64,000 nt of DNA from an uncultured Eubacteriales bacterium (GCA_964646425.1 CAZYEI010000001.1:4731-68730); one strand, 5' to 3'. Counted from the stretch's first letter, positions 10,605 to 28,338 are shown. A program made the numbers and translations. Notes: a model not told the origin generated them from the letters alone.

Positions 10605-13600
10605 TTATTTAATATATGCAATTATTTGGTCATAATAACCATCACGAACTTTTTTAGCAATATCACCTTTAACAACATTGACAGTTGTTTTAACATTGTC
10701 TTTAATTAATTCATAATGAGAAATACAATTATCATTATAAACATTTTTCGCCTTATTTACTTTATAAGTAACTAATGTTTTTCCTAATAATTTAAAAGAT
10801 ACTTCACCATCTTTAGTGAAAAATGAACTGTGAATATGTGGATTAAGCGCCAATTTTAATTCATTATCTTCCATAATAAACATATGCTTTCCTACCATCA
10901 TATACAACCAAATACTTAGCATTTCAGCAGTTGTTCCTGAAAGTCTAGCAACAAAACCTTGTCCGTGAGTTAGAGGATCAGGATTTGCACTTGAAGCTAT
11001 AAATGAAGAATGTTCCATTGGAGATCTACCATAAACCGCAGGATTCATAAAACATACCAGATTAGTCTTCATCGCTTCATGGAATTCTTTATATAATCCA
11101 GCCTTTAATAAACCAAGTAAATACTTATATGTCATATGCATAAAATTTGATTCTCTTTCAAGCCATCCTTTAGTAAAGGCTCTAATTCTACCAATTTCTT
11201 GAGTTTCACCATCTAAATCTGCACTTGTTTTATATGTTTTAAGTTTTTCATCATAAATATCTGATTCTTTGATAAGCTTATACATTTCTTTAAGTTCTTG
11301 TTTATCTTTAACAACTTTTAAGGCTCTTGCAGGCCCTTCTAAGAATTTAGGCAATTCTCTAATTTTAAATTCTTTAACCTTGACTAAATTATATCCTTTA
11401 TAACCTGTTTTAACATTACCATTTTCATCTTTGATTAACTCATAATCAGTAACATCATATGCAATAAAAGTAGGATAAATTCCATTTCCTAATTCTTTTG
11501 CTTTTTCAATTGCAGAATTTAATTTAAGTTGCATTTTCTTTAAAATATTAGCAAAAGAATCAGCAGAAATCTCAATTTCGCCAGTAGCACCTAAACGTAA
11601 TTTTTCACGATAATCTTCTCTAGCACTACATACTTCATCCCAATATTTAAAATCATTGTTATATGTATCTAAAGCATTTTCAACTTTCTTGATAAATAAT
11701 TGTAATTCATTTGTTATATATAATTTTCCATTTGGATATTTTTTTGTCATATCAACTAAGAAATTTACAATCTTTAATGTTTCAAATGTTTCACTTACAC
11801 CAGAAGCAAACAATCCAGGTAAGCCATTCATAGCATCATTCCAACCTGGTTTTCCTGCTTCCATTTCAATACCAATTCCTTTATTATCTAATAATGCAAA
11901 TTTGTTAAATGCCAAAGAAAATAATTTTGAATATAAGTTTGTATAAATAATTTCTTGATTATCATATTTCGCCCAGTTTGTAGTCCATTTATTAATATTA
12001 AATTTATTAATTTTTAAATCATCTTCATGATATAAAGAACCATATTGACGAATTTTTCCTGTTTTTGTTAAAACAGTCTTTGCACTTCGAGGTTGGACAA
12101 AAGCACAAGATTCATAATATTTATAATCTTTTTCTTCAAATAAAGCTCTTTCTTCTTCATCAGGATATACTGATAAAAAGTTATCAACTAAATCCATTAA
12201 ATAAGAAAAATGATCGACCCAGAATCCTTCACCAAATGAAGCTTCAATATTTTGAACTGATTCTCCTAAAATTTGAGATAAATACTCGTCTTCAGTTAAT
12301 TTAGTTTTAACACCATTGTTTTCAACTGTATTAACAATGCTACCTGGAGTAAAACTATTTGATAGCAATTTAGTCATTAGCTCATGATGACTAGCAAAAC
12401 ATGTATCTACAATTTTACTAACATCTGCATTATTTACTAAATTAAATGTTGTACCATTAATTCCTAATGGATTATAACCATCTTGTTGAATCAGTGAAAC
12501 AAAATATTTTAAATTATAATCTTTTACTTTAGGACAAATCAAAGAATCACTTCTTCTATTTTGACAAATGTCACGGAAATTTCCATTACCTTGAGAATAA
12601 TATTCCGGAGCAATTGAAAAGAAATTATAATCTCTCTCTAAATCTCCATGTCTTCTTGAATATAAATAATAAATATACTCTTTATCTTTTGCTTTAAAGG
12701 CAAAAGGATATCCTCCACGAAGTAAATTGTCTAAATATGTGTTCTTTAAATATTCATCAAAAATAGGGAATGCTGTATGTGTTTCAACATCGCTCATCAT
12801 AATTTCAATTACATCTTTTGCTTCTTTTTCTTTTTGATTTACATATTCATGCGAACATAAATGAGGCAAAATTGCATTAAATGCTTCTAATGAATGGCAA
12901 TTACCTATAATAGTATCAAGACGTTTAGTTTCACCAGATTTTAAACATAAAGTAACTGGGGTAAAACCACACAATACTTTATTTGTACAATATTGAGGTT
13001 CTGCTTTCAAAGCCTCAATACCTCCCTTTACAAATTTATCATTTATATTTGTATATGAATTATCATAGCCAAATACAACATATGGATCACAAATAGGTTT
13101 AATTAGTTTGTTGTCAACAAAAGACAAGTAAAAATTACCTTCATAAACTTCAGCAACTTCTTCAGAATCACCTGTTGATGCTCGTAATTTATAGAATGCA
13201 CAATCATTTTCAAGATTGAATACTCCCATCCAAGAACGAAGTAAATTAGACATTACTTTAAATGAACCGTGTTCAGTTCCAGGAGTAAATATTTGTGAAC
13301 ATCCATCCAATAAATCAATTTTTAAATCACTATTCGAAATATTTGTTACTTCAACTTTTCTTACTAAGCCAACAATCGGCTCATTTGGAAGACCAAAATA
13401 AGTAACATCAACTCGAATACCAAGTTTTTTATTTTCTTCACTTATTCTGAATTTTTCTCTACTAATATACATTGTTCTTTTAGCAGAATCATTTTTTACA
13501 CAAAATATTTCTTGTACTTTATTATTTATTTTTACAAAAGTTCTAAAACCAATTCTATTAATAACTTCATACGCAGTGTAAGCAGGGAAAAATTCAAGAA

Positions 13601-13781
13601 TGGCACCATTTTTGTCTCTAACACCAAAACTACTCATTCCTTGGCCTCTATTTACATAAAAAGACCAACCTGGTACTCCTTTCTTACCAGCAATCGCTGG
13701 TAAAAAACTAGAAAATGTTTTTTGTTTATCAAAATTTTCAATTACAAATTCACCATTTGAAAAATAATAATCTTTTTTCAC
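10605..13781 (-). CDS. Large intracellular protein, possibly a GH94/GH149/GH161-like glycoside phosphorylase such as a beta-1,3-glucan phosphorylase. The function is not established from sequence alone.
   Basis: The 1058-aa product has no signal peptide. It is the last gene of an operon with GH16 and CUT1 ABC transporter genes and lies 12 nt after the GH16 lipoprotein gene. Its size and context are typical of beta-1,3-glucan phosphorylases, but I could not verify a catalytic motif by eye. Confidence 0.35.
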   Translation of the reverse strand: MKKDYYFSNGEFVIENFDKQKTFSSFLPAIAGKKGVPGWSFYVNRGQGMSSFGVRDKNGAILEFFPAYTAYEVINRIGFRTFVKINNKVQEIFCVKNDSAKRTMYISREKFRISEENKKLGIRVDVTYFGLPNEPIVGLVRKVEVTNISNSDLKIDLLDGCSQIFTPGTEHGSFKVMSNLLRSWMGVFNLENDCAFYKLRASTGDSEEVAEVYEGNFYLSFVDNKLIKPICDPYVVFGYDNSYTNINDKFVKGGIEALKAEPQYCTNKVLCGFTPVTLCLKSGETKRLDTIIGNCHSLEAFNAILPHLCSHEYVNQKEKEAKDVIEIMMSDVETHTAFPIFDEYLKNTYLDNLLRGGYPFAFKAKDKEYIYYLYSRRHGDLERDYNFFSIAPEYYSQGNGNFRDICQNRRSDSLICPKVKDYNLKYFVSLIQQDGYNPLGINGTTFNLVNNADVSKIVDTCFASHHELMTKLLSNSFTPGSIVNTVENNGVKTKLTEDEYLSQILGESVQNIEASFGEGFWVDHFSYLMDLVDNFLSVYPDEEERALFEEKDYKYYESCAFVQPRSAKTVLTKTGKIRQYGSLYHEDDLKINKFNINKWTTNWAKYDNQEIIYTNLYSKLFSLAFNKFALLDNKGIGIEMEAGKPGWNDAMNGLPGLFASGVSETFETLKIVNFLVDMTKKYPNGKLYITNELQLFIKKVENALDTYNNDFKYWDEVCSAREDYREKLRLGATGEIEISADSFANILKKMQLKLNSAIEKAKELGNGIYPTFIAYDVTDYELIKDENGNVKTGYKGYNLVKVKEFKIRELPKFLEGPARALKVVKDKQELKEMYKLIKESDIYDEKLKTYKTSADLDGETQEIGRIRAFTKGWLERESNFMHMTYKYLLGLLKAGLYKEFHEAMKTNLVCFMNPAVYGRSPMEHSSFIASSANPDPLTHGQGFVARLSGTTAEMLSIWLYMMVGKHMFIMEDNELKLALNPHIHSSFFTKDGEVSFKLLGKTLVTYKVNKAKNVYNDNCISHYELIKDNVKTTVNVVKGDIAKKVRDGYYDQIIAYIK

Positions 13782-13793
13782 ACTTAATTCCTC

Positions 13794-14984
13794 CTATAAA
13801 GCAGAAATTTCTTCTGCTTGGTATACACGAACATAATCAATTACAAATTTGGGACCGATTCCATTTTCATCAAAAATAGAATCATCAATTCCTTGGGCAC
13901 CACCCCAATTACCACCCCACGCAAAATTAAGGATGATAAAGAATTCTTGATCAAATGGCCATGACTTATAATCTGGACAAGCCACATGGCTATTTGGATT
14001 ATATGTATAATATGGATTACCATCAACATAATAAATTATTTTATCTGGCAACCATTCGGTAGTATATGTATGATATGTATCATATATATCGCTCAATTTT
14101 GTAGAGCCACCTTTTTGTAAACCATTCCCCCCATTGAAACTAGCTGTATGGATAGTTCCATGAATTACATTTTCACTATAGCCAACGGTTTCCATAAAAT
14201 CAATTTCTCCAGTATCTGGCCAACTCTTTTTACCATAAACACCAGTGTTTGGCAATGCCCAAAAAGCCGGCCAAGTACCTTTTCCTCTAGGCATTTTAGC
14301 TCTTATTTCAAATTTACCATATTTATATTTGACTTTATTTCTAGTAATAAGTCTTGCAGAAGTATAACTTGAACCTTCATATTCTTCTTTTCTTAATGTA
14401 ATAGTCAAATTTCCATCTTCGACTTTAGCATTTTCTTCTCTATTTGTATAATATTGAAGTTCGTTATTTCCCCAACCCCAACTACCAGTACCAATCTCCG
14501 GTGTCCAATAATCACTTGTAGGAAATCCTTCATAATCAAATTCATCAGACCATACTAATTCATAATTCAAAGTATCATAATTATAATTAAAATTATTAGC
14601 TTTACAAGCACTTGTTCCCTTACCAATAATTACAAAATAATAACCAGTTGCAGTCAAGCCACCACTATCTTCAACTGTAAATGTAACTTTATATTTATTA
14701 TCAATATTTAAGGGGATTGAATCTACATAATTTTTATTATCATAATCATAAATAGTATATGTAATTTTATCAGTTAAATTTCCATCTTCAGTATCATAAG
14801 CAGTAACATTTAACATAACATTATATGTTCCTGAAGATTTAGACGGCATTCTATCAAATAGACCACTTAGTTGTGGAGCCGTATTATTTTCATTATTACT
14901 TGAAGATGTTCCATTTCCTTGACATCCAACAACAGAACAACTTAGCACAAATAACAATCCTAATATTTTTATTTTACGATTCAT
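13794..14984 (-). CDS. Secreted glycoside hydrolase family 16 lipoprotein (laminarinase) with an extra N-terminal beta-sandwich domain
   Basis: A lipobox is present (VLSCSVVGC). The GH16 motif GEIDFMETVGY occurs in the C-terminal domain. Confidence 0.8.
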   Translation of the reverse strand: MNRKIKILGLLFVLSCSVVGCQGNGTSSSNNENNTAPQLSGLFDRMPSKSSGTYNVMLNVTAYDTEDGNLTDKITYTIYDYDNKNYVDSIPLNIDNKYKVTFTVEDSGGLTATGYYFVIIGKGTSACKANNFNYNYDTLNYELVWSDEFDYEGFPTSDYWTPEIGTGSWGWGNNELQYYTNREENAKVEDGNLTITLRKEEYEGSSYTSARLITRNKVKYKYGKFEIRAKMPRGKGTWPAFWALPNTGVYGKKSWPDTGEIDFMETVGYSENVIHGTIHTASFNGGNGLQKGGSTKLSDIYDTYHTYTTEWLPDKIIYYVDGNPYYTYNPNSHVACPDYKSWPFDQEFFIILNFAWGGNWGGAQGIDDSIFDENGIGPKFVIDYVRVYQAEEISAL

Positions 14985-15001
14985 ATAATATTCAAACCTT
15001 T

Positions 15002-15991
15002 CTATTGTCCAGTTAATCCTGTTTGCTCGATACCTTCAACGAATTGTTTTTGAAGAACTGCATATAAAATTAACAATGGAATAATTGAGATTAAAGTTCC
15101 CGCCATTCTTTTTGCTTCGTTAACCATCTCTTTGTTTCCTTTATCAACACCACCAAGCAATGTATCAATGGCATTTAATTGATTTGGCAAAATTTGTAAG
15201 CCACCAGCTAAATAATATTGAGTTCCTAAAGTATCATTCCAATTCCAGACAAATGAAAACAAAAAGACAGTAATAATGATTGGAATTGATAATTTAAAGA
15301 TTACATGATAGAAAGTTTGGAAAGATGTCGCACCATCCATAATTGATGCTTCATCTAAGTCATAAGGAATTTGTTTAAAGAAACTATAACAAATTAAGAT
15401 TAAAATAGTTGAATAAACACCTTGTCCAAATAATGCTAATAATATTTGTGGAAGCACTGTTCCAATCAATTTAATTCCAAGTTTATCATAAATAGTTGTA
15501 AAAATCATTCGACGAGGAATAATTAACATTGGTGCCGGAATAATAAAGGCAGCAATTAATAACCCCCACCAAAACTTTGCCCCCTTAATTTTATATCTTG
15601 CTAAGGCATATCCAGCTAAAGCAGATATAATTGTTTGGATAAAAGCAAGTAAAAATGAGAACCAAACTGAATTAAGCAATGATGTTAAATAATCTAATGC
15701 AAGATAAGCTGCTTTATAATTAACAAATTGCCATTTCTTTGGTAATACTATTACTTCCGGATCAACTAAATCAGAACTTGATTGAAATGATGTGAAAAAC
15801 ATATCTAAAATCGGTTCTAAAAATACAAATGCAATAACAATTAACAATGCATAATAGACAAGCATTGGTAAAAATCCATCACGTAATCCATTACCAAATA
15901 AAAAATTCTTAATCTTTACCCAATTTATTTTCTTAAATTTTTCATATAATGCAACACCAGCATTTTTAATTTTAGTAACTAAATTTTTCAT
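15002..15991 (-). CDS. Carbohydrate ABC transporter permease (MalG/CUT1 family)
   Basis: Multiple TM segments and the EAA-loop motif EASIMDGATSFQTF are present. I moved the start to the ATG at 15991..15989 (MKNLVTK...), which has the Shine-Dalgarno sequence AAGGGGGG and lies 2 nt after the upstream stop. The longer ORF-track start at 16048 overlaps the upstream gene by 56 nt. Confidence 0.85.
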   Translation of the reverse strand: MKNLVTKIKNAGVALYEKFKKINWVKIKNFLFGNGLRDGFLPMLVYYALLIVIAFVFLEPILDMFFTSFQSSSDLVDPEVIVLPKKWQFVNYKAAYLALDYLTSLLNSVWFSFLLAFIQTIISALAGYALARYKIKGAKFWWGLLIAAFIIPAPMLIIPRRMIFTTIYDKLGIKLIGTVLPQILLALFGQGVYSTILILICYSFFKQIPYDLDEASIMDGATSFQTFYHVIFKLSIPIIITVFLFSFVWNWNDTLGTQYYLAGGLQILPNQLNAIDTLLGGVDKGNKEMVNEAKRMAGTLISIIPLLILYAVLQKQFVEGIEQTGLTGQ

Positions 15992-15992
15992 T

Positions 15993-17108
15993 TTAATTAC
16001 CCCCCTTAGAAACATCATCATGTTGCTTCTTAAATTTTTTATTTTCACGTTCTAATTTTTTTCTACGAAGTTCAACTTCCTCTTCATGATCAAGTTGAGC
16101 CCTTCTTAAAGCTTTCATTTGGCGTCTTTGTGAAGCTTGTACACTTCTTAATTTTTTATTTCTTGCTTCAGATTCTTTTCTACCCATATTTTGAGTATAA
16201 GTAATTACCTCTTTAACTTTCTTTTGTCTAGGAAGTAAAATCAAAGCAAATAAACCAATCATTAATAAAATAAAGATTGTCATAATAAAGGCCATTGCTG
16301 CAGCTAAACCTTCTTGATTTATTGTAGTAATCATATTGTTCATAATTGTATATAATTGACTAGTTGGCAAAGTAGCAACTTGTACAATTGAAAATACAGC
16401 AATAATCATAGCAGTAGAACGCACATTAGGAATAGTTATTTTCCATAAACATTGCCATGAAGTTGCTCCATCAATTTGAGCAGCAGCATACAAATCTTTA
16501 CTAATCTTTTGCAATGCATTAATAAATAAAACAATAGGAATACCTGTAAGCCACAAAATTACGACAAACTCATCAAATATTGATTGAACTGCATTAGCAA
16601 GTGGCATACTATAGGAAGAAATAATTCTAAAAAGAAATGAAGTTTGCTCAGGGCCTTCAATAATATTTCCTGTTGTTCCTGTAGTAGTTGATTCAAATAA
16701 CATAGTTATTAATGCACCAGACATAATAATAACAGGCATAAAATAAATAGTTCTAAAGAATCCTCTACCTTTAATATTTTTATTTAATATTATTGCTAAG
16801 ATAAAAGAGATAACTAAGATAATCGGAACATAAATAATTTCCGTTTTCATAAAATCTCCAATTGCTGTTAAAAATGAAACATTTTGTGTCAATGCATTAA
16901 CAAAATTCTTTAAACCATTAAAAGTAAAATGATAGCCATGCACATCATGTTTAACAGTTGAGAAACTCATAATGACAGCAATAATAAAAGGTATAAATGT
17001 TAAAAATACAGCACCTATAATCCATGGAGAAAGGAAAGAATATCCTAAAATATTCTTTCTTTTAGCATTTTCATTTTTAAATTTATATTTTTTTGTTTTT
17101 TCTCCCAT
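15993..17108 (-). CDS. Carbohydrate ABC transporter permease (MalF/CUT1 family) with an unusual ~85-aa Lys/Arg/Glu-rich C-terminal tail
   Basis: The EAA loop AAAQIDGATSWQCLWKITIPN is present. I moved the start to the ATG at 17108..17106 (MGEKTKK...), which has the Shine-Dalgarno sequence GAGGTG and lies 1 nt after the upstream stop. The tail RQKKVKEV...RRKKLERENKKFKKQ looks like a charged coiled coil. Confidence 0.85.
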   Translation of the reverse strand: MGEKTKKYKFKNENAKRKNILGYSFLSPWIIGAVFLTFIPFIIAVIMSFSTVKHDVHGYHFTFNGLKNFVNALTQNVSFLTAIGDFMKTEIIYVPIILVISFILAIILNKNIKGRGFFRTIYFMPVIIMSGALITMLFESTTTGTTGNIIEGPEQTSFLFRIISSYSMPLANAVQSIFDEFVVILWLTGIPIVLFINALQKISKDLYAAAQIDGATSWQCLWKITIPNVRSTAMIIAVFSIVQVATLPTSQLYTIMNNMITTINQEGLAAAMAFIMTIFILLMIGLFALILLPRQKKVKEVITYTQNMGRKESEARNKKLRSVQASQRRQMKALRRAQLDHEEEVELRRKKLERENKKFKKQHDDVSKGGN

Positions 17109-17109
17109 A

Positions 17110-19557
17110 TTATAACACCTCGAATCCTTGAGCTGAAACTTTTGTTTCACCATAAGTAAGAGGTGAATCACTATAGTTTATTACAATTTTCTTTCCATTA
17201 CTATATTCATTTACAATTAAACCATTTTCTAATTTTGTACGATTAATCCAATCTGCATTAATTACTTTTCCTAAAGCACTATCAACTTGTGTATAAATAT
17301 TCTTAATCATCTCTTTATATAATGAATATTCAGTTGAATAATAATTTGAACTATTAGTATATGATAAATAATGCGAAGATTCTTGGCTTAAAACAAATGA
17401 AGGATAAACATTAAAATCTATCATTTTTAAAATACTTTCTTGATCATAGAAACTAAAATTACTATATGGTGCATATAGTTCCATACAACCATTTAAAACT
17501 AATTGTAGTAGTGGGATTTCTGTTTCTTCAATTAAATGTTGACTATTAAATACCGGAATATTGAAATATCTATCAACATATTTCCATAAATATTTATTTG
17601 GTTGTTCAGCATTTACCATACCTTTTCCATCTAAATATTTAAAAGCATTTTCAATATTTTCCATTGCTTTTTCTCTAGTGCCTTTATTATTTGATAAAAC
17701 ACGATTTGAAATACCAGTTACAGTCATTGAATTAATATTAGTTTTTTTACTTAATTCCTTATTTTGTGACTTAACCCATTTTAGTGAAGCATCACTTCTT
17801 GCATAACCAAATTCATTAATAAAGTAATGATTAAATGAAGTATATTCAATATATTTTCCATTATAATGTTTTGTTGCATTACCACTGAAACTTATTTGAC
17901 TTTCATTAATTAAGAAATAATCTTGGGAGAATGAAACATCAACATTTTGTTTTTCCATACTTGAAATTAATGATTTATATTCACTAGCAGTTCCTATTTT
18001 ACTTGTAAAATCTGCTTTATCAGGTCGTCCCAAAGTAATTCCTCCACTTTGCCAACCTAAAAGAGAAGTAACAATGTTGTCAATTCCATTATTTAAAGAA
18101 TCGTTTAAAATTGCTTTTACATCATTTGCTGTTGTTACAACAGCATCACTTGTCCCAAGAACACTTTCTTCAGCATCAGCCATAATGAAGTCTAAACGAG
18201 TAATAATATGCTCATTTTCAAAATTTTTCTTTGTTAATTGTTTTTCTTCATTTATTAAATAATCACGATAAGCCTTAGCAACACCAACATAGTTAGCATT
18301 ATCTCCTTCTAAAAAATCATAACGCATACCAATATCATAATCAAATGGATTATCATTTAATACCGGTGCACTAGATGTGCCATCTTGAGAATAGTATTCA
18401 GTATAATCAAAATTTGTTCTAAATGTTGCATATGCATAAATATAACTATCATTATCCGCGTTATCCGGACTAACATTAATAGCCATATGTTGTTCACCTT
18501 TAGTTGCATAAGCTACAACAGCTTTTTGTGAATTAGTTGCAGTTTCATTATGAACAACACCAAACATTGGCATTGATGCATCTTTCAAAGGAACCGTTGT
18601 TCTTCCTGATTCTGGACTATAATGTTGTTTATTTGTAGTATAATTTTGACCATATACATATGACTTATATACGCCAAGAGTTACATTACTATCTACAAAT
18701 GGAATAATTGCACCTGAACCATCAGGAACAATTATATATCCTTTAGCCATTTCTTTACTTATTTTTGTCTTAGTATCATAATCACCATTTTCAACAAATG
18801 TCTTAATTGTTTCTCCAGTTTCCGGATCAGTTGAATCTGATTCAACTTTTTTTGAAACAAATGGGCTACCTTCTCCACCTGTTGCGCCAATAAATGGGGC
18901 TATTGTTATATCTATTAATCTGTTTTTATCTGCACCAGTAATTTCTTCGTGACGAAGTTCAAATTCAATGCCTTTTTCATCAAAATAAATATGAACAGAA
19001 AGATTAATATCAGCCCATACTCCAATTTGAAAATCTAAACGATAGTGAGTATCACTATTATCGATTTTCATTAAAGTAGACTTACCATATTTTGGATTTT
19101 CATGAGCACTTGAAACTTTAAATAAATTAGTCATTGCTTTATCATCTTTTTTATAAATATATGCAGTAACTAAAGAATTGATTATTGAGTTTCCTGTTGT
19201 ATCTTCATATAAATCACAAACATAATTTGGATCAGCATTCATTGCCTTTCGACATGCATCTCTTGCTTCTCTTTTTGTTTGATAAGGAACATCAGCTCCT
19301 GTTTTCCATAATATTTCTTTTGAATTAACATCTTGAATTTGAATAATATCTAATGATTCTTTATATGAATATATATATTTACTATTACGATATAATTCAA
19401 CATATGTATCTTCATCCTTTGAAGATATGGCAGTTTTGGCAATTTCTTTTGTTGAGTTGTTATTTGCTTCTTCATTTCCAGCAATATTAATCAATGAAGA
19501 TAAAGGAAGCAAAAATACAATTAGTGCTAAATACTTAATTTTTTTAACTAATGACAT
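17110..19557 (-). CDS. Secreted protein of unknown function (815 aa) encoded within the ABC transporter operon
   Basis: The signal peptide MSLVKKIKYLALIVFLLPLSSLINIAG follows a strong Shine-Dalgarno sequence, AAGGAGG, and the start overlaps the upstream gene by 14 nt. I recognise no catalytic motif. It may be a DUF-type glycan-processing or glycan-binding protein. Confidence 0.5.
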   Translation of the reverse strand: MSLVKKIKYLALIVFLLPLSSLINIAGNEEANNNSTKEIAKTAISSKDEDTYVELYRNSKYIYSYKESLDIIQIQDVNSKEILWKTGADVPYQTKREARDACRKAMNADPNYVCDLYEDTTGNSIINSLVTAYIYKKDDKAMTNLFKVSSAHENPKYGKSTLMKIDNSDTHYRLDFQIGVWADINLSVHIYFDEKGIEFELRHEEITGADKNRLIDITIAPFIGATGGEGSPFVSKKVESDSTDPETGETIKTFVENGDYDTKTKISKEMAKGYIIVPDGSGAIIPFVDSNVTLGVYKSYVYGQNYTTNKQHYSPESGRTTVPLKDASMPMFGVVHNETATNSQKAVVAYATKGEQHMAINVSPDNADNDSYIYAYATFRTNFDYTEYYSQDGTSSAPVLNDNPFDYDIGMRYDFLEGDNANYVGVAKAYRDYLINEEKQLTKKNFENEHIITRLDFIMADAEESVLGTSDAVVTTANDVKAILNDSLNNGIDNIVTSLLGWQSGGITLGRPDKADFTSKIGTASEYKSLISSMEKQNVDVSFSQDYFLINESQISFSGNATKHYNGKYIEYTSFNHYFINEFGYARSDASLKWVKSQNKELSKKTNINSMTVTGISNRVLSNNKGTREKAMENIENAFKYLDGKGMVNAEQPNKYLWKYVDRYFNIPVFNSQHLIEETEIPLLQLVLNGCMELYAPYSNFSFYDQESILKMIDFNVYPSFVLSQESSHYLSYTNSSNYYSTEYSLYKEMIKNIYTQVDSALGKVINADWINRTKLENGLIVNEYSNGKKIVINYSDSPLTYGETKVSAQGFEVL

Positions 19558-21658
19558 TTCTAATCGCCTCCTTAAACAACGAACCAACATAATCAATCAA
19601 ATCACCAGCAAGCATTGTAATTATTAATATTACTAATAAAATTATCAACATAAATCCGATAGTAATAATAATACTCTTTATTGTTTGCCAGAAAGTATAA
19701 TTATGAATATTTTCAATACCCATAAAAATCATAAATCCTGTTAACCCAATTCCAGCATATTGAATTACTTGTAATAAAAAAACATCATCATATGTCAAGA
19801 AATGAGATAATATTGTAACAACAATCATTGAAATCATCCATGGAACAAGTGAATATCCAATCGTACGATAAATTGAAATCATTGTTCCTTCACCATCTTG
19901 AATAGAGGTTACCATATAATTACAATATATAAATAAACCAATAATGCCAACATATCCAGCAGTTAAAGCAATAAAGTCAACTTCAAAGGCTTCGACATAT
20001 TGATAGATAAATCCTTTACCTATTGTATACCATAAGAAAACTGCAAATGTAATAATATATAAAACTGTTGCCGCTAAAGTTGAACCTCTTTTTCCAGCCC
20101 TTAAATCATAAAAACTATCAGTTGGTTTCACTAATAATTGGTAAGTAAATTTTAAATCTTTAACCAGTTTAACATTATCTACCTTATTTTTAGCATTAAC
20201 AGCCACAGCTAAGCAATTAGTTCTCTTATGAACTTTCTTTAATATTACAATAGCAATGATTGCAATAAATAAAATCACTAATGCTGTAACTAAGTTATTT
20301 TGAATCCAAATATTACGAACTTCCCAATAAGCTTTTGAATATGATTGTCTATTTCTCGCAATTTCCAAATGGTACATTGCACTTTCATAATCTTCATTAT
20401 ATAAGTAATTTAAACCAATGTTATTATGAGCAAGTGAAGACATTTGATTCAATTCAATTACTTCTTCCCATAATGCAATTGATTCATCATAATGACCTAA
20501 ATCATATTCAGCAAGTGCTGCATAGATTTTTTTAGAGTAATCAGTAGGTGTAAAAGTGTGAACTGCAGCTTTTTCACTATCTAAACACCATATTTTTCCA
20601 TTATTATCAACAGCAATAGAAACTAATGAAGAGAACAATCCATCAATATCTTGAGTACTATCAGGTGTTTTACCACCAAACACACATAAAAATTCACCAT
20701 CATTAGTGTAAATATAAATATATCCATCATTACTTGCAGCATAAACAATACCTTGAGAATCAACATAAATATCAACTGGTGAGTTTGAAGAAACTAGATC
20801 ATACTTTGTAAATTGATTTACTCCTGCAGTATTGTGTTTTTGAATAAAAGCATAAGGTTTTGAATAATTTGTTGTAGTGTATAATAAACCATCTTTATCA
20901 GTAAATAAATTACTAAATAAAGGTGCTTGAATTGCTAAACCTAAATTTTCTTTTTGTTCTGTTGTAAATAGAATATCGTAAATATAATCCATAATTCCTT
21001 TAGTAACTTTGTTTGTTGCAAAATAGCCAAGGAATGAACCTTTCTTATCTAATTGAATTACACCATCGCCAATTCCATCTGCGATAACATAAACATTTCC
21101 ATTAATGTCGGCAGAAACTTTAGAAGGTTCAAAATCACGATCTCTAAATAAAGTGCTTGTTGGTTTTCCAAAAGCTGTATAATACTCAAATTTAGATGAT
21201 GAATCATTATATTGATAAATATATACATTTCTTGCTTCAGAATCCGCAATATAAAGCAAACGATTATTTAATTCGTTATTATATGTTATAAATACACCTC
21301 TAGGATTTTTTATATTTTCTCCTTCAATTGTATATAACAAATTCATATTATCATCAAAAACACGAACAGCACCCAAAGTATTTTTATCTAATTTTGAATC
21401 TGCAATATAAATAATATTGTCTTCATCAATAAAAATATCGTTTGGTTTATTTAGTCCAATATCTGTTAATGTTTTATTTGGTAAATAAGCATCTTGAGTT
21501 CTAATTAAACCATGTCCTCTTGCATCAAGAGAATATGTATATGATGTTGCATTTCCACTCATTTCTACTACCATAATATCTTTATTTTTTGGGGCCATTG
21601 CGAAACAAGTGAATAAAATAAGGACAACCGCAACAAATCCTTTTAATTTCATTTTCAT
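19544..21658 (-). CDS. Signal peptide + NHL/beta-propeller-like repeats + TPR + C-terminal polytopic Yip1-like membrane domain (704 aa)
   Basis: An N-terminal signal peptide (MKMKLKGFVAVVLILFTCFAMA) is followed by repeated ...IYIAD/VYVIAD/IVYAASNDGYIYIY... blades typical of NHL/YVTN propellers. TPR-like helices follow (ALAEYDLGHYDESIALWEEVIEL...NNIGLNYLYNEDYESAMYHLEIA), then a TM helix and a region of about 5 TM segments resembling the Yip1/DUF1282 family. The ORF is adjacent to, or overlaps, both neighbouring genes. Confidence 0.55.
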   Translation of the reverse strand: MKMKLKGFVAVVLILFTCFAMAPKNKDIMVVEMSGNATSYTYSLDARGHGLIRTQDAYLPNKTLTDIGLNKPNDIFIDEDNIIYIADSKLDKNTLGAVRVFDDNMNLLYTIEGENIKNPRGVFITYNNELNNRLLYIADSEARNVYIYQYNDSSSKFEYYTAFGKPTSTLFRDRDFEPSKVSADINGNVYVIADGIGDGVIQLDKKGSFLGYFATNKVTKGIMDYIYDILFTTEQKENLGLAIQAPLFSNLFTDKDGLLYTTTNYSKPYAFIQKHNTAGVNQFTKYDLVSSNSPVDIYVDSQGIVYAASNDGYIYIYTNDGEFLCVFGGKTPDSTQDIDGLFSSLVSIAVDNNGKIWCLDSEKAAVHTFTPTDYSKKIYAALAEYDLGHYDESIALWEEVIELNQMSSLAHNNIGLNYLYNEDYESAMYHLEIARNRQSYSKAYWEVRNIWIQNNLVTALVILFIAIIAIVILKKVHKRTNCLAVAVNAKNKVDNVKLVKDLKFTYQLLVKPTDSFYDLRAGKRGSTLAATVLYIITFAVFLWYTIGKGFIYQYVEAFEVDFIALTAGYVGIIGLFIYCNYMVTSIQDGEGTMISIYRTIGYSLVPWMISMIVVTILSHFLTYDDVFLLQVIQYAGIGLTGFMIFMGIENIHNYTFWQTIKSIIITIGFMLIILLVILIITMLAGDLIDYVGSLFKEAIRNVIS

Positions 21659-23524: not shown

Positions 23525-25153
23525 CTAATTACCTTTATTTTGGGCAATCATTTTTTCCACCCAATCTCTTTCTCTAATTGTATAACCATCTGTATAACCA
23601 AATTCTTCTAATTTTCTTGTTATTTCTCTATTTATTGAAATAACTGCAGTATCAATTGATCCCCTAACAGGTTCGTTGCTTAATACAACTTGTGTCCAAA
23701 TATTACTTAGTCCTCTTTCTAACATATATTGTCCTGGAGTTCTAGGAATATCGATAATATATTCAAGAGAATTTAAAATAACTTGTTTATCTTTTGAATC
23801 AATTGGCGCATTGGCAACTGCTTCTAGATTACAGCTTAACCATAAATATTCAGGTCCATATGTAGATTGCAAAGTATAACCAAATTCTGTTTGAACTTCA
23901 GTTGAAGTCCACCATTTTAAGAAATCCCAACATCTTTCAGCTTTGTTAGTATCAGCAAATATCATCGATGCAGAACCATTACTGATATATGTTCTATTTA
24001 TTGAACCATCATCTTGTTCTGTTCCAAGAGGCAAAGTAATTTGCCATTTACCATTTAATTCTGGAGCTGCATTTTTCATCATCAAGTAATCAGAGAATGA
24101 AGCAGTTCCAATTGGTTGAGTTCCATTTCTAAATGAATTATAGAAACTTTGAACTTGCGTTGATAAAGAATATTTTGTAAATAATTCTGTTAATTGAGTT
24201 ATTCCCTTAACAGCTGCTTCTGAATTAATAGCAGTAGCAGTTCCATTTGCATTATATAATTGTCCACCATTTTGATAAATCAATGGTGCAGTTTGATAGA
24301 ACCACTTAGTTGCATTTGTAGCACTAATTTGCATATAGTAATTCATTCCATATCTTTGTAATGTAGGAAGAATACCAATCATTTCAGTATAAGTATTTGG
24401 AACATCAATATCAAATGAATTAAAAATATCTTCACGATACATCATAACATTAAAATCAAGTGTTTCAGGTAATCCGTAAACTTTATCATTTAAAATATAT
24501 GATACTAAAGTTCCTGGAGCAAAATGGTTATCACTCATAACTTGCCAAAAATCTTCAAATTGAGTCATATCATATGCTGCATTTCTAACTGCAAAATCGA
24601 ATGGCATATGTGAACCAAGTCCCATAGCCATATCTGGTGTTTCGCCAGCAGCATTTGCCAATAATAATTTTGAAGCATCAGGCATAATTGCTAATTTTAC
24701 TTTGGTTTCCGTAGTATTAAATTCACGATCAATCATATTTTGCATAATATCAATGTAGGTCATTGGTCTATTTACCCAAATTGTTAAAACATTAGGATCT
24801 TCATCATCCAATGATTGTTTATACTTATCAGAAAAGAATGAATCCAGTAAGATTGTTGCATCAGCACCTAAAGTAACAAAAACATTTTTAGTTGCTCTTG
24901 GCAATTTAGTTTTTCCATAAACATACATCATATCTAAAGATATTGCTTGTCCAGAAAATGAAGAAATACTTTCACCAACAAGAGCGTTTATAGAACTTGT
25001 ACCACTATATAAATTTTCTAAATATAGAGGCAATTCATCAGGCTCTTCCATTAATTCTTCCAAAGTAGCAATTGCTTTTTGCACATATGAAAGTAATGAA
25101 GAATCAGCACCTTTTTCAGAATAAATTTTTCCTCTTGTAATTATTGCTTTCAT
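23525..25153 (-). CDS. Family-1 extracellular solute-binding-protein-like domain protein (LplA-like). It has no signal peptide of its own and no RBS.
   Basis: The 542-aa product has the size and composition of LplA-type oligosaccharide-binding proteins and is coupled to the permeases, with a 2-nt gap. The sequence upstream of its ATG (TATTTAAAAGCTTATGATACTTTAATG) has no Shine-Dalgarno element. It is in frame with the upstream ORF across a single TAA. Confidence 0.6.
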
Positions 25154-25177
25154 TAAAGTATCATAAGCTTTTAAATA

Positions 25178-26521
25178 TTATGAAGTTTCCGGAATATATT
25201 TTGTCAATTTCCAATCTTTATCCATATCAATATCATTTCCAGTAACTTTTAAAATTTCCAAGGCAAAATAATTTATATGATCAACAATTAATTGCAAATC
25301 GTTAATTAATGATGCCATATTTTCCATTTCAGCACGTAAAGTAATTTCATGTTTTCCAGCACTTAAATATACATAATATGGATTGCCATCATCATCTTGT
25401 AAATGGGTATTGCTCCATGTATTTCCAGTATGTGGGAATGAATAATTTTGTAACTCAGCAAATGGAATAACTCCATCTATATAGACACTTCTAAAAGCAT
25501 CATATTCATTTTTATCGTTAATATAATGGAATCCCAATTGATAATATCCGGCAACTTCTACCTCTACTTCATATGTTATACTTTGTCCGGCTTTTTGCCA
25601 TGATGTTCCAGAAATTACATTTAATTTTTTAATATCAGTTGAATATGGAGTAACATTTGGAGTTGACTCACTTTCTAATCTTACGTATGAAGAATTTTTT
25701 TCTATATATTCTGTTGCATTAATTTTGTAAAGAGATTTTTGTAAACTTTGTTCGCCATATTTTGCTTTTATTTCATTTTGATAATTAGCATAGGAAACAA
25801 TTTTTTGTGGGGACTTTGCTTTTAATTGTCCTAACGCTAAAACACCACTGCTCGAAATAGAATTAATTGTTATTTTATTTTCACCATTTTCTAAATAAAA
25901 AAGTAAAGGAGTAGATGATTTATATTGATTGTCATACATTTGTAATGACATCCATTCATCTATTCTAACACTTGATGGAATAGTCTCATCGCCATAAGAA
26001 TCTAAAGGAAAATCTTTTGTTGAATCTTGCCAGTATAAAGGAACATCAATTGTAGATGCTTCACTATATTGATATTTATCATTAATTTCAATTCCTATTG
26101 TTTGATTGGTTAAAACATTATCTCCTACAACTCGATAATCAACTTCAATCTCATATAATCCTGATGTTGGAATATCAACTAAATAGTCAACACTTTCACC
26201 ATATTCAATAGTATAGATATTTCCATTAGAATAGCCATAATTATTGTTCTCTTGATTAGTTTTTGAAGACATTGAAGCTATTTCACTATCCTTCAATGAA
26301 TAATTAATATCTTTTTCACCTAAAAAATCAACATATGTTGTTTCGTGTTTAAAACTACTCGTTTCAATAGATTTAACCAGTAAATCATATGCATTTTTTC
26401 TTTCTTCTTCATTTATATTAAAATCAGGAGCAGAACCACTATTTGCTATTACTACTACTCCAACGGATAATAGTGCAATTAAGGTAACAATCGACACTAC
26501 TCTTTTTGTTTTTCTTCTCAT
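25178..26521 (-). CDS. Membrane-anchored extracellular protein of unknown function. Its frame continues into the SBP-like ORF downstream. It may be the N-terminal half of a tethered SBP gene that is disrupted or read through.
   Basis: I placed the start at the ATG 26521..26519 (MRRKTKRVVSIVTLIALLSVGVVVIA), which has the Shine-Dalgarno sequence AAGGTGGGG. The ORF-track start at 26557 has no SD and lies inside a hairpin. After the single TM anchor the body is rich in beta strand. The ORF ends ...KYIPETS-TAA, then continues in frame with [13 protein letters not shown]... Confidence 0.5.
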   Translation of the reverse strand: MRRKTKRVVSIVTLIALLSVGVVVIANSGSAPDFNINEEERKNAYDLLVKSIETSSFKHETTYVDFLGEKDINYSLKDSEIASMSSKTNQENNNYGYSNGNIYTIEYGESVDYLVDIPTSGLYEIEVDYRVVGDNVLTNQTIGIEINDKYQYSEASTIDVPLYWQDSTKDFPLDSYGDETIPSSVRIDEWMSLQMYDNQYKSSTPLLFYLENGENKITINSISSSGVLALGQLKAKSPQKIVSYANYQNEIKAKYGEQSLQKSLYKINATEYIEKNSSYVRLESESTPNVTPYSTDIKKLNVISGTSWQKAGQSITYEVEVEVAGYYQLGFHYINDKNEYDAFRSVYIDGVIPFAELQNYSFPHTGNTWSNTHLQDDDGNPYYVYLSAGKHEITLRAEMENMASLINDLQLIVDHINYFALEILKVTGNDIDMDKDWKLTKYIPETS

Positions 26522-26560
26522 AATTAACCCCACCTTAATTAATTGTAAAGACTGCATAAG

Positions 26561-26587
26561 AGTAGGACAAAAAATGTCCTACTCTAT
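26561..26587 (-). other. Intercistronic stem-loop GAGUAGGACA-uuuu-UGUCCUACUC immediately downstream of the SBP gene
   Basis: A perfect 10-bp stem is visible, with no clear U-tract after it on the minus strand. It may act as a 3'-stabilising or processing element. Confidence 0.45.
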
Positions 26588-26610: not shown

Positions 26611-28305
26611 TTAGAAATCAGACTCATTAAAGCCATAATAAGTAATCAATGATTGACGAATTAAACCAAATGCTTGCTCATAACGACCATTAATTACATC
26701 ATTATATTCGCTTAAGAACGCTGTATATGTGCTATACCAGTTCGGACTATCAATTGTAACACCTACAACATCTTCAACACCAAAGTTATCAATTTCATGT
26801 AAAATAGAAACTGTTTCTCCACCATCGTTCATATATTCTCTAGGGAATGCCTTATCTGAAACACCATAAATTTTTCCTTCTCCCCAAAGTCTAACAACTT
26901 CAGCAAATCCAGGGAATTTTTCAGCATCTGCAAATTCCATATGTCCAGGAGTAGATAACCAAATTTCCATTTGTTTATCATAATCATCACCCTTTGAAAT
27001 TAAAGGGAAAGATTGAGGAGTTGCATATGCATAAACATAATTACCATCATCATCTAATGTATCGGAATATTGTTGTTTACTTGCAGCTTCCCATGCATCT
27101 GTACTTGTTAGCCAGAAAGCAGTGAATGTATAGGCAATATCCATCTTCTTTAATTCAGCTTCACTACATGTATTGTTACCATCATCAGCACAATAGTTAT
27201 AAATAGAAATTGGATCTAAAACTACACCAACATGATTATCAACAATAACATCACCATTTGAATTTGTTAAAGCTGGACGAGGATAATAATCCCAATCATC
27301 TGATAATACTTCACTAGCTCCGCCTTCAGTATTTCCATAAACAAACATCCAAGGATGTTGATCAAGAGTTAGTAAACCACCTTTTGAGAAATAATAATAC
27401 TCATAATTGCCAAGTCTTGAAGTATAGTCTATAATTCCAGGATCAGTCCAATCTCCAGTAGCATTTTTAAAACTATATTGAGCTTGTTCAACAAGATTTG
27501 GAAGTGCTTGTTTAAAATCATCAGTAGCAAAATTTACATATGTTTCGCCACCTTCAAAATTTTGAAGTTGTGTTTCAATATATGCACCTTTTAGCATTGT
27601 CATACTAGCATCTAAGCTTCCATAATAAGAATAATCTACTTTATGTGAAACAAAGTCTGTGTAATCATCCCATGTCCAGTCAACATCTGGAGAAGCAATT
27701 TTTTGAGCTGTCGCTAATTCTCTATTTACATAAACTCCCCAAGGAATAGCATATTGAGGAAGCGCACCTTGGAATCCATAAAAATTACACATAGAAAGTA
27801 ATGATGGATTTAATTTCTTATATGCAGCATCATCTTTATATCTTGATAGATCTGCGATAATGCCTTGTTGCATATCATCATAAACATTTTTAGATAAGAA
27901 AATATCAGGATACGCTCCATTTGCAGCCTTATAATTTTCTAATTCAGCGCTCCAATCTTCCGGATCATCAGCTTTACTTGCTAAATTAATTTTAATATTT
28001 GGATATGTTTTATTAAATTCTTTAGCAATAGCATAAATCATTGCAGTATTAAATCCTGAAATTTCATTTGGTGCCCATTCAGCATGACCAATATCTTTAT
28101 GAGTTTGACCATCGCCAGCCCAAACCATAACAGTAATATCTCCACTTGTATTTTTATCAATTAAATCAGTTACTTGACCATTACCACCAGAAGCTGTATT
28201 ACTTGACTTATTTGGTTTTGAAGTATTACTGCCACCACACGCTGCAACTGACGTTAATAAAACTAATGAAGCAAGTAGAGTACTAAATTTATTAAATTTT
28301 TTCAT
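26611..28305 (-). CDS. Extracellular solute-binding lipoprotein (family 1, CUT1 oligosaccharide-binding)
   Basis: I placed the start at the ATG 28305..28303 (MKKFNKFSTLLASLVLLTSVAACGG, a lipobox), which has the Shine-Dalgarno sequence GGAGG 8 nt upstream. The ORF-track start at 28335 has no SD. An S/N/G-rich linker is followed by an SBP fold. Confidence 0.85.
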   Translation of the reverse strand: MKKFNKFSTLLASLVLLTSVAACGGSNTSKPNKSSNTASGGNGQVTDLIDKNTSGDITVMVWAGDGQTHKDIGHAEWAPNEISGFNTAMIYAIAKEFNKTYPNIKINLASKADDPEDWSAELENYKAANGAYPDIFLSKNVYDDMQQGIIADLSRYKDDAAYKKLNPSLLSMCNFYGFQGALPQYAIPWGVYVNRELATAQKIASPDVDWTWDDYTDFVSHKVDYSYYGSLDASMTMLKGAYIETQLQNFEGGETYVNFATDDFKQALPNLVEQAQYSFKNATGDWTDPGIIDYTSRLGNYEYYYFSKGGLLTLDQHPWMFVYGNTEGGASEVLSDDWDYYPRPALTNSNGDVIVDNHVGVVLDPISIYNYCADDGNNTCSEAELKKMDIAYTFTAFWLTSTDAWEAASKQQYSDTLDDDGNYVYAYATPQSFPLISKGDDYDKQMEIWLSTPGHMEFADAEKFPGFAEVVRLWGEGKIYGVSDKAFPREYMNDGGETVSILHEIDNFGVEDVVGVTIDSPNWYSTYTAFLSEYNDVINGRYEQAFGLIRQSLITYYGFNESDF

Positions 28306-28338
28306 TATTTTGCCTCCTATTTTACTAATTATCAATTC

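Follow-up and report, generated by a model that had tools for sequence, protein, structure and literature searches.

A propeller–TPR–Yip1 membrane protein as a candidate accessory subunit of a conserved seven-gene glycan-import cassette

In the window that we have analysed, i.e. a stretch of 64,000 nucleotides from an uncultured Eubacteriales bacterium, the genes of a carbohydrate ABC importer enclose a gene (19544..21658, minus strand, as are all the features described here) that encodes, from an ATG start codon, a protein of 704 residues with an NHL-type propeller, probable TPR motifs, a transmembrane (TM) helix and a Yip1 domain. What is the role of such a protein inside an importer locus? 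The first-pass annotation could match it to no known component of carbohydrate ABC systems, and suggested that it captures glycans at the surface, acts as a scaffold, or acts as a sensor coupled to the transporter.

The open reading frame is a real gene for a real membrane protein: we have found at least 197 full-length homologs (37-91% identity) and, in a search of 1.84 billion representatives, more than 140 full-length 50%-identity clusters at E<1e-120. The protein belongs to a large uncharacterised family, carried by hundreds of Gram-positive and mollicute species; the family is widespread and not peculiar to the source genome, which had been overlooked, and our literature search has found no paper that describes the protein or its family.

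The N-terminus (residues 1-23, 21590..21658; AF2 helix 2-20) is predicted to be either a signal peptide or an uncleaved signal anchor: the hydrophobic segment (residues 5-23) of the proposed signal peptide is present, but its cleavage is not established, as the obvious A-M-A site is directly followed by a proline. The next region (residues 29-371, 20546..21574) forms an extracellular NHL-type beta-propeller of six blades, into which a helical segment (residues 222-239) is inserted. The AF2 model (pLDDT 84.9, pTM 0.72) has beta strands throughout this region, which Foldseek matches to the six-bladed NHL domains of Thin, Brat, TRIM71, NHL-2 and PknD (target-normalised TM 0.68-0.75, E-values down to 8e-12); the sequence shows the blade signature D-x-x-G-x-[IVL]-[YW] six times, and these signatures and the fold together identify an NHL-repeat propeller of six blades. 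The Pfam NHL score over the whole protein is 26.7 bits (cutoff 20), and NHL, SGL and Reg_prop give weak matches across residues 66-310.

The weak matches to SGL (E 4e-5) and SSL_N, and the source annotations of homologs, among them "sugar lactone lactonase YvrE" and "streptogramin lyase", would suit a catalytic propeller of the SGL/gluconolactonase, strictosidine-synthase or lyase type that modifies the glycan before uptake. We give this reading very little credence, and have rejected an SGL/SMP-30/gluconolactonase assignment: SGL scores 23.7 bits, below the gathering cutoff of 26.3 bits; the conserved Asp and Gly residues sit in the repeated structural blade signature and not at one central site; the top structural matches are non-catalytic NHL domains; and the same core residues are kept while the cassettes described below serve different glycans.

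After the propeller, four AF2 helices (residues 373-434, 20357..20542), continuous with the juxtamembrane helix, are compatible with about two TPR motifs: TPR_2 (24.4 bits, cutoff 27) and TPR_11 (23.5 bits, cutoff 26.8) both fall slightly under threshold at residues 379-434, and a PDB consensus TPR protein matches at E 4e-6. A long AF2 helix (residues 437-480) contains TM helix 1 (residues 455-473, 20240..20296; hydropathy 3.09), which is predicted to run from the outside to the inside and leads to a basic cytoplasmic loop (residues 474-527, 20078..20239; 13 K/R versus 4 D/E). The C-terminal part is a five-TM Yip1 bundle (residues 528-681, 19616..20077), with TM segments predicted from hydropathy at residues 528-546, 560-583, 599-620, 626-646 and 663-681; the AF2 helices agree with these segments and continue across the bundle as far as residue 703. 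The Pfam family PF04893 (Yip1, which includes the former DUF1282) matches residues 507-677 over profile positions 2-172 of 173 (41.0 bits, cutoff 28.6, E 2.4e-10), and is present in all 120 homologs among the matches listed; the protein is a Yip1 member both by this score above the gathering threshold and by its predicted five-TM bundle after a cytoplasmic segment. The first-pass annotation had proposed the order of signal peptide, propeller, TPR, TM helix, loop and about five Yip1 TM segments, and had called for domain and structure searches: with the exception of signal-peptide cleavage, and with the TPR scores slightly short of threshold, Pfam, AF2, Foldseek and hydropathy agree with it, Yip1 being above its Pfam cutoff and the six-bladed NHL fold being found by AF2 and Foldseek.

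The gene is one of seven in an invariant cassette that contains two permease pairs, where a single importer had been assumed: the order giant substrate-binding protein (SBP), P1, P2, target, DUF5696, P3, P4 is one tightly packed unit in every locus examined. In the window, the giant TM-anchored family-1 SBP (23525..26557; about 1000 residues in relatives) contains an in-frame stop codon, TAA at 25178-25180, which may leave the local cassette less than fully functional; an intact ortholog of 996 residues is found in locus L083. The N-terminus of this SBP has CBM-like domains (weak CBM35 match), and its C-terminal half resembles Lin1841 (E 7e-13). The permeases P1 (22551..23522), P2 (21660..22538), P3 (15993..17108, probable start ATG 17108, with a K/R/E-rich C-terminal tail) and P4 (15002..15991, probable start ATG 15991) are BPD_transp_1 proteins, and all four carry EAA loops. 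Around the cassette, a second family-1 SBP of lipoprotein type (26611..28335, about 560 residues) lies upstream, a secreted GH16 lipoprotein of endo-beta-glucanase type (13794..14984) lies downstream, and it is followed by a cytoplasmic GH161 beta-1,3-glucan phosphorylase homolog (10605..13781; PDB 9qqk, E 3.5e-215); in our census of 73 loci, these three genes are neighbours of the cassette in 58, 54 and 41 loci respectively.

The tightest partner of the target, missed so far, is the DUF5696 protein (17110..19557), a membrane-anchored protein of 815 residues with an N-terminal TM anchor and an ectodomain of GH129-like glycosidase fold. Its closest known relatives, the GH129 glycosidase NagBb (5wzn) and the Zobellia 3,6-anhydro-D-galactosidase (5opq), share only 13-14% identity with it; the likeness is at the level of the fold, and the DUF5696 protein differs from the GH129 enzymes in being TM-anchored and always encoded between permease genes. 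Its start is the ATG at 19557 and not the TTG at 19596, which gives a 14-nt overlap with the target gene, and its AAGGAGG ribosome-binding site lies inside the last codons of the target; this arrangement suggests that it is translationally coupled to the target. Overlaps had been claimed on both sides of the target gene: the downstream one is there, but upstream the TAA stop of P2 is separated from the target ATG by 1 nt, a junction (stop, 1 nt, ATG) that recurs from DUF5696 to P3 and from P3 to P4. Together, these tight junctions suggest co-translation.

A genomic survey of the linkage to ABC permeases had been named beforehand as what could refute a functional tie; our survey strongly favours it. 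The upstream half of the cassette (SBP-P1-P2-target) is intact in 60/60 testable loci and the downstream half (target-DUF5696-P3-P4) in 68/69, the single exception (L046) having P3 and P4 fused; the target gene lies between the second permease gene and DUF5696, on the same strand, across Clostridia, Lachnospiraceae, Erysipelotrichaceae, Acholeplasmataceae, Haloplasma, Izemoplasmatales and Christensenellales. The order is also unchanged in five very distant cassettes that have other glycan enzymes alongside (PF10091/GH35/GH3 in one; GH20/GH3/GlcN6P-isomerase/NamZ in another); the DUF5696 relatives encoded there share 20-29% identity and come from Paenibacillus, from Oscillospiraceae and from further MAGs. 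Synteny as strict as this is proof of a shared function, and not of a scaffold mechanism.

In relation to canonical CUT1 importers (MalEFGK2 and the sophoro-oligosaccharide system of Lin1841), the cassette has in common the family-1 SBPs, the EAA-loop BPD_transp_1 permeases and an ATPase encoded elsewhere (GH161 loci have been noted as lacking NBD genes; PMC6484121), and differs in having two permease pairs, a TM-anchored SBP of about 1000 residues and two obligatory extra membrane proteins, the target and DUF5696. The domain search of the target found no SBP_bac_1/8, BPD_transp_1 or ABC_tran domain; the target stands beside the three canonical CUT1 parts (SBP, TMD and NBD) as an additional component, as the earlier failure to match it to a known component had implied. 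In function, it may be analogous to the Sus-like accessory proteins of Bacteroidota (SusD/E/F-type), which are also at the cell surface, encoded inside a glycan locus and associated with a transporter; the two are not homologous, and differ in envelope, transporter (TonB-dependent versus ABC) and anchoring (lipoprotein versus polytopic).

A propeller outside the membrane beside a TM helix is also seen in M. tuberculosis PknD, whose NHL sensor domain, also extracellular, closely resembles the propeller in structure (TMt 0.70), and in the hybrid two-component sensor BT4663 of Bacteroides. The target could thus be a transmembrane sensor or gate, whose propeller senses a glycan and whose Yip1 domain and loop, where both the loop and the cytoplasmic motif are conserved, relay the signal to the transporter (ATPase coupling) or to a regulator. 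PknD and BT4663, however, have cytoplasmic kinase or response output domains, whereas the target has the Yip1 bundle: the domain search found no kinase, HATPase, receiver, HTH, GGDEF or other output domain, and the cytoplasmic part consists only of the 54-residue loop and short Yip1 loops. Moreover, the regulators beside the cassette vary (LacI in 32/73 loci, an AraC-type response regulator in Paenibacillus and L085, none in others), and therefore the target is not tied to one signalling partner. We have rejected a receptor of the PknD or hybrid two-component kind; the classical sensor role suggested earlier is unlikely, and we consider sensing or gating in general highly improbable.

The Bacillus subtilis YknWXYZ system had been proposed as a precedent for a partnership of Yip1 proteins with ABC transporters, and PMC4887032 states as much: YknW, a polytopic Yip1-domain membrane protein encoded, like the target, with ABC transporter genes, is described there (citing Yamada 2012) as modulating YknXYZ assembly, and its partners are the MacB-type exporter YknYZ and a membrane-fusion protein (MFP). 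The partners of the target are type-I importer permeases, SBPs and a GH129-like protein. Since the exporter has a different ABC architecture, the analogy is loose; Pfam searches of the neighbours found no MacB/FtsX or MFP gene at the target locus, which sets it apart from a YknW-type exporter accessory. To our knowledge, YknW has no propeller/TPR ectodomain.

The action of YknW on assembly, as PMC4887032 presents it, is also what would be expected if the target were a membrane chaperone that inserts or assembles the four permeases and the TM-anchored partners and stays outside the working complex; eukaryotic Yip1 proteins, to judge from paper titles, function in membrane trafficking, and the strict synteny is equally compatible. 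Nevertheless, a chaperone has no obvious need for a strongly constrained extracellular propeller/TPR region of 430 residues, and the tight packing suggests near-stoichiometric production; a role in biogenesis only is, in our judgement, improbable.

The reading that we put forward, at somewhat better than even confidence, is that the target is an obligate, non-canonical membrane accessory or scaffold subunit of the seven-gene glycan-import cassette, which links modules outside the cell with two CUT1 translocators. Residues conserved in all the divergent cassettes occur in the blade cores, in the TPR (W397) and in the juxtamembrane helix (R448), and are strongest in the Yip1 part: the motif N580..[ST][IL]xDGxG, in general form N-x4-[ST]-[IL]-x-D-G-x-G, which is universal and located at the cytoplasmic end of TM3, and P606 and Y654. 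Such residues fit protein contacts that are independent of the substrate. In two of the five distant cassettes (L086 and L089), we have observed that the Yip1 part is encoded by a gene of its own, next to one for the propeller, TPR and TM helix, and that the split lies exactly within the cytoplasmic loop; in L086, the second of these genes comes with a separate GGAGG ribosome-binding site and start.

Solely from the synteny, the gene packing and the gene fission and fusion, we infer that the target may contact the permeases and DUF5696. In the membrane, the Yip1 bundle, together with the TM helix ahead of it, would dock against the permease heterodimer(s); the continuous juxtamembrane helix would keep the TPR and the six-bladed propeller rigid just above the outer membrane face, where they would coordinate the hand-over among GH129-like ectoprotein, tethered SBP and translocators; the ATPase of the cassette is encoded elsewhere. 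By docking and by coordinating the hand-over, the target would thus be an assembly or scaffold subunit, as YknW is for YknXYZ, and neither a transporter nor an enzyme nor a transcriptional sensor.

Other strongly conserved motifs are specific to clades, i.e. TQDAYLP (residues 54-60), H275 and Q405/S407/H411, and differ where the flanking enzymes differ; they are equally compatible with a glycan ligand site. Reg_prop-type propellers bind glycans in hybrid two-component sensors. Variation with the flanking enzymes is what a substrate site would show. A rival reading is surface capture, where the extracellular propeller, held near the membrane and possibly aided by the TPR, binds a polysaccharide or long oligosaccharide, as the glycan-binding surface proteins of the Sus-like systems do, and feeds it to GH16/DUF5696 and the SBP, with Yip1 as a mere anchor; the Foldseek matches include BT4663 (4a2m), and the weak Reg_prop match points the same way. 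Against capture, a five-TM domain with a universal cytoplasmic motif far exceeds the needs of an anchor, the CBM-like domains of the giant SBP are already available, the propeller matches no carbohydrate-binding family, and the clade-specific motifs could instead co-vary with partner proteins; we regard it as rather unlikely.

Since GH16 and GH161 are the usual flanks of the cassette in the source clade, beta-1,3-glucan is the probable substrate at this locus: the cargo would be a beta-1,3-gluco-oligosaccharide, made by the surface GH16 and used by the cytoplasmic GH161. The target very probably serves a glycan importer as an accessory subunit that has not been described before.

The gene at positions 19544-21658 (minus strand), set in a genomic G+C content of 29%, is an ATG-initiated open reading frame of 704 residues, and its product belongs to the Yip1 Pfam family and carries an NHL-type propeller. 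The Pfam search has located a Yip1 domain (PF04893) at residues 507-677 (41 bits vs a cutoff of 28.6), weak matches to NHL, SGL and Reg_prop spread over residues 66-310, and TPR matches at residues 379-434 that fall just under the cutoff; the NCBIfam search has returned only insignificant partial matches (ScyF, CIS12 and MamA), far under their cutoffs. The AlphaFold2 model, for which an alignment of 37 family members was used, is confident (pLDDT 84.9, pTM 0.72): an N-terminal helix (residues 2-20) is followed by an all-beta region (residues 29-371), four TPR-like helices (residues 373-434), a single long helix that includes the first transmembrane (TM) segment (residues 437-480), and a helical bundle that reaches the C-terminus. 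The comparison of structures with Foldseek has matched the beta region with the six-bladed NHL domains of Thin, Brat, TRIM71, NHL-2 and PknD (target-normalised TM-score 0.68-0.75), and inspection of the sequence itself reveals the blade signature D-x-x-G-x-[IVL]-[YW] six times.

Hydropathy and charge place residues 24-454 in the ectodomain and residues 455-473 in the first TM segment, followed by a basic cytoplasmic loop (residues 474-527; 13 K/R vs 4 D/E), five TM segments (residues 528-681) and a short external C-terminal helix. Cleavage of the putative signal peptide is uncertain, because a proline directly follows the A-M-A site. The architecture that had been proposed in the first-pass annotation is correct, as Pfam, AlphaFold2, Foldseek and hydropathy concur, and the protein is shown to be a polytopic membrane protein of predicted topology, on which, according to the modelled fold, the extracellular propeller/TPR part is rigidly mounted. 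A catalytic role of the propeller is a less likely reading, since the SGL score is sub-threshold and the conserved acidic residues are part of the blade repeat.

Several other identities have been considered and set aside: a chance open reading frame is ruled out by the homologs, and a canonical part of an ABC importer, i.e. a solute-binding protein (SBP), a membrane domain or a nucleotide-binding domain, by the lack of any such domain; a YknW-type partner of a MacB exporter is rejected; the gene context gives no hint of a defence or phage element; and a classical sensor or receptor would need an output domain, which the protein does not have.

The word-indexed search has returned 197 full-length homologs of ~680 residues (37-91% identity) from Clostridia, Lachnospiraceae, Herbinix, Haloplasma and Acholeplasmatales, annotated uninformatively as “YIP1 family protein”, “NHL repeat containing protein” and similar, while the Yip1 part alone (residues 476-704) returned a single fragment in the same kind of search. 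With the family profile, more than 140 full-length 50%-identity clusters were found at E<1e-120 among 1.84 billion representatives, the metagenome clusters including gut and rumen Lachnospiraceae. Two conserved peptides led to 268 relatives at sites in species-representative genomes, from which the best-scoring 80 loci were fetched, and the neighbouring proteins of the window were compared by BLAST with all open reading frames of these 80 loci. Wherever the flanking DNA sufficed among the best 80 of the 268, the same genes occur on the same strand in an identical order: a giant SBP (~1000 residues), the permeases P1 and P2, the Yip1-propeller protein, a DUF5696 protein, and the permeases P3 and P4. 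Within this set of 80, the upstream half of the cassette is present in 60 of 60 testable loci and the downstream half in 68 of 69, the sole exception being locus L046. The order is confirmed by the gene calls of the source databases and Pfam in Haloplasma contractile, in a 2-Mb genome and in a close relative with synteny across the entire operon of the window. The Yip1-propeller protein co-occurs obligately with DUF5696, the four permeases and the tethered SBP.

At the place of P3 and P4, L046 has one long open reading frame (14890-17520), an apparent P3-P4 fusion. In another locus, L049, the contig that carries the cassette was assigned to Anaerolineaceae, as a result of either horizontal transfer or mis-binning.

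The junctions between the genes are tight. The gene overlaps that had been noted on both sides of the Yip1-propeller gene are borne out downstream, where DUF5696 starts at ATG 19557 with an overlap of 14 nt and its AAGGAGG ribosome-binding site sits in the conserved C-terminal F-K-E-A codons of the Yip1-propeller gene; upstream there is no overlap, the order being TAA, 1 nt, ATG. This “stop, 1 nt, ATG” arrangement occurs at P2 to the Yip1-propeller gene, at DUF5696 to P3 and at P3 to P4 (15989-21662, minus strand), and such junctions all along the cassette are consistent with co-translation.

Five further contigs, one from Paenibacillus sp. MBLB4367, one from an Oscillospiraceae MAG and three of other metagenomic origin, were looked up through DUF5696 proteins with 20-29% identity to that of the window, and the seven-gene order is kept in all five; by these comparisons, the cassette is older than the clade of the window and is not bound to one substrate. 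The Paenibacillus cassette (L085) has no adjoining glycosidases and has an AraC-type response regulator gene upstream; in L087 the flanking genes encode PF10091 “Glycoamylase”-like proteins, GH35 and GH3, and in L089 they encode GH20, GH3, a glucosamine-6-P isomerase and NamZ. Because such different enzyme sets flank the same cassette, it seems to be an import platform of general use, employed for several different glycans. The regulators beside the cassette also vary among loci; together with the missing output domain, this makes a sensor or gating role of the Yip1-propeller protein less likely. A role in biogenesis only is likewise a less likely reading.

In two of the distant cassettes, L086 (7681-9979) and L089 (5310-7986), the gene is split into two adjacent genes, the first encoding a propeller-TPR-TM protein (557 or 664 residues) and the second a Yip1 protein (211 or 226 residues); in L086 the coding sequence is broken within the cytoplasmic loop, and the Yip1 gene is equipped with a separate GGAGG site and ATG. 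The natural occurrence of the two modules, ectodomain-TM and Yip1, in both split and fused form indicates that they probably work together. L086 also has two ABC_tran ATPase genes immediately upstream of the giant SBP gene, unlike most loci.

All four permeases have EAA loops in their sequences, therefore both permease pairs should couple to an ATPase. P3 ends in a cytoplasmic tail of ~70 residues, K/R/E-rich and of low complexity (~15996-16220, minus strand; …RQKKVKEV…RRKKLERENKKFKKQHDD…), which seems variable, because the length of the P3 open reading frame differs widely among loci. The model of the DUF5696 protein (AlphaFold2; pLDDT 81.9, pTM 0.84) consists of an N-terminal TM helix, a large beta-sandwich, a (beta/alpha)8-type barrel and a C-terminal beta-sandwich; the family profile picks up GH129 by sequence (5opq, E 1.3e-9; 5wzq, E 6e-5), and conserved acidic columns occur in the barrel (D662, E678, D714 and E749). 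As modelled, DUF5696 is a GH129-like ectoprotein anchored in the membrane, which would serve either as an enzyme or as a structural subunit without activity.

The giant SBP gene of the window (23525-26557, minus strand) contains an in-frame TAA at 25178-25180, which cuts the product into a 459-residue N-terminal part (TM anchor and CBM-like region) and a 542-residue SBP part that has no export signal. In the relatives the protein is encoded by one open reading frame of ~996 residues, and an 85%-identical ortholog has a lysine at this place; the TAA stems either from a nonsense mutation of recent origin or from an error in the assembly, and the local system of the window may be impaired by it. 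Between the genes of the lipoprotein SBP and the giant SBP, the spacer is occupied by a hairpin (26559-26585, minus strand; perfect 10-bp stem, 7-nt loop, AGAGTAGGAC-ATTTTTT-GTCCTACTCT), with 1 nt between its end and the first ATG of the giant SBP; the hairpin may be mRNA-stabilising or attenuating, and the true start may be the ATG 12 codons downstream (MRRKTKR...).

The operon of the window (from ~30049 down to 4162, minus strand) begins with an Ig-like lipoprotein, a family-1 SBP lipoprotein and the giant SBP, continues with P1, P2, the Yip1-propeller protein, DUF5696, P3 and P4, and then encodes a GH16 lipoprotein, a GH161 phosphorylase homolog (10605-13781, GTG start; PDB 9qqk, E 3.5e-215), a 968-residue surface lipoprotein with aBig_2 and F5/8 type C domains, a second GH16 with no signal, LacI and, lastly, GH5. 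The segment 4162-14984 (minus strand) and the cassette make up a complete predicted laminarin-type utilisation locus, in which there is no ABC ATPase gene. Clustering of the flanking open reading frames across 73 loci has revealed a ~560-residue SBP lipoprotein, always upstream, in 58 of them, GH16 in 54, GH161 in 41, LacI in 32, GH3 in 23, GH30 in 14, GH5 in 9 and GH4 in 7.

GH161 enzymes are beta-1,3-glucan phosphorylases, and their genes have been noted beside ABC permeases without NBD genes (PMC6484121); because of the GH161 and GH16 neighbours, the cargo in the clade of the window is likely a beta-1,3-gluco-oligosaccharide. The loci appear to drive the use of beta-glucan, and in other clades of amino sugars or beta-1,2-glucan, in Bacillota and Mycoplasmatota of the gut, the rumen and sediments. 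The same study describes in Acholeplasma laidlawii a GH161 cluster with “two permeases, GH16, GH3” and no SBP, next to which lies a further ABC cluster, this one with an SBP; the study mentions no hypothetical or membrane proteins for the GH161 clusters, nor the two intervening genes. We infer that this arrangement corresponds to the two halves of the cassette. The searchable literature contains no description of DUF5696, of the propeller-TPR-Yip1 architecture or of the cassette, which would be a new form of CUT1-type ABC importer, in which the permease pair is duplicated and two further membrane subunits, both obligatory and uncharacterised, have been added.

Gene context and predicted structure are the basis of our functional readings. 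On balance, we favour an accessory scaffold or assembly subunit, which would couple the GH129-like DUF5696 and the tethered SBP to both translocators. The closest precedent is YknW, a Yip1-family protein of an ABC transporter, which is reported to modulate the assembly of YknXYZ (PMC4887032). Two kinds of conserved residues bear on the contacts of the protein. Kept even at 23-28% identity are G121, P166, D184, G199, G207, F209, G279, D360, T372, W397, R448, N580, S/T585, G589, G591, P606, Y654 and E697, which make up the blade cores, one tryptophan of the TPR part, an arginine next to the membrane and, most striking, a Yip1 motif at the cytoplasmic face, by which the Yip1 bundle would make a substrate-independent contact with the transport machinery. 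The clade-specific invariants (TQDAYLP at 54-60, H275, Q405/S407/H411, W445/E446 and K548/Q553/D561) cluster on the propeller, the TPR part and the outer ends of the TM helices, where the ectodomain may contact partner ectodomains, the glycan or both in a clade-specific manner. Direct capture of the glycan by the propeller, the main rival of the scaffold reading, is in our judgement unlikely. Since L086 and L089 encode a single SBP for two permease pairs, the propeller/GH129-like pair might take over from a classical SBP the delivery of substrate to the second permease pair. Beyond the scaffold reading, we propose only tentatively that the Yip1-propeller protein and DUF5696 are stoichiometric subunits that unite P1P2, P3P4 and the tethered giant SBP in one membrane super-complex, a monoderm counterpart of the Bacteroidota “utilisome”, in which long glycan chains would be captured, trimmed and imported in physically coupled steps.

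The ABC sugar importers of Gram-positive bacteria are three-part machines, composed of a binding protein, two permeases and an ATPase; in contrast, the cassette has two permease pairs instead of one and, in addition, two obligatory membrane proteins. If its products form a complex, monoderm bacteria would have a novel way of taking up glycans, DUF5696 and a large bacterial subfamily of Yip1 would each gain their first function, and the apparently “SBP-less” permease pair beside GH161 in Acholeplasma (PMC6484121) would be accounted for. As the cassette is not peculiar to the window but occurs in hundreds of species, it is biologically weightier and less a one-genome curiosity, and it offers a concrete route to the role of bacterial Yip1 domains.
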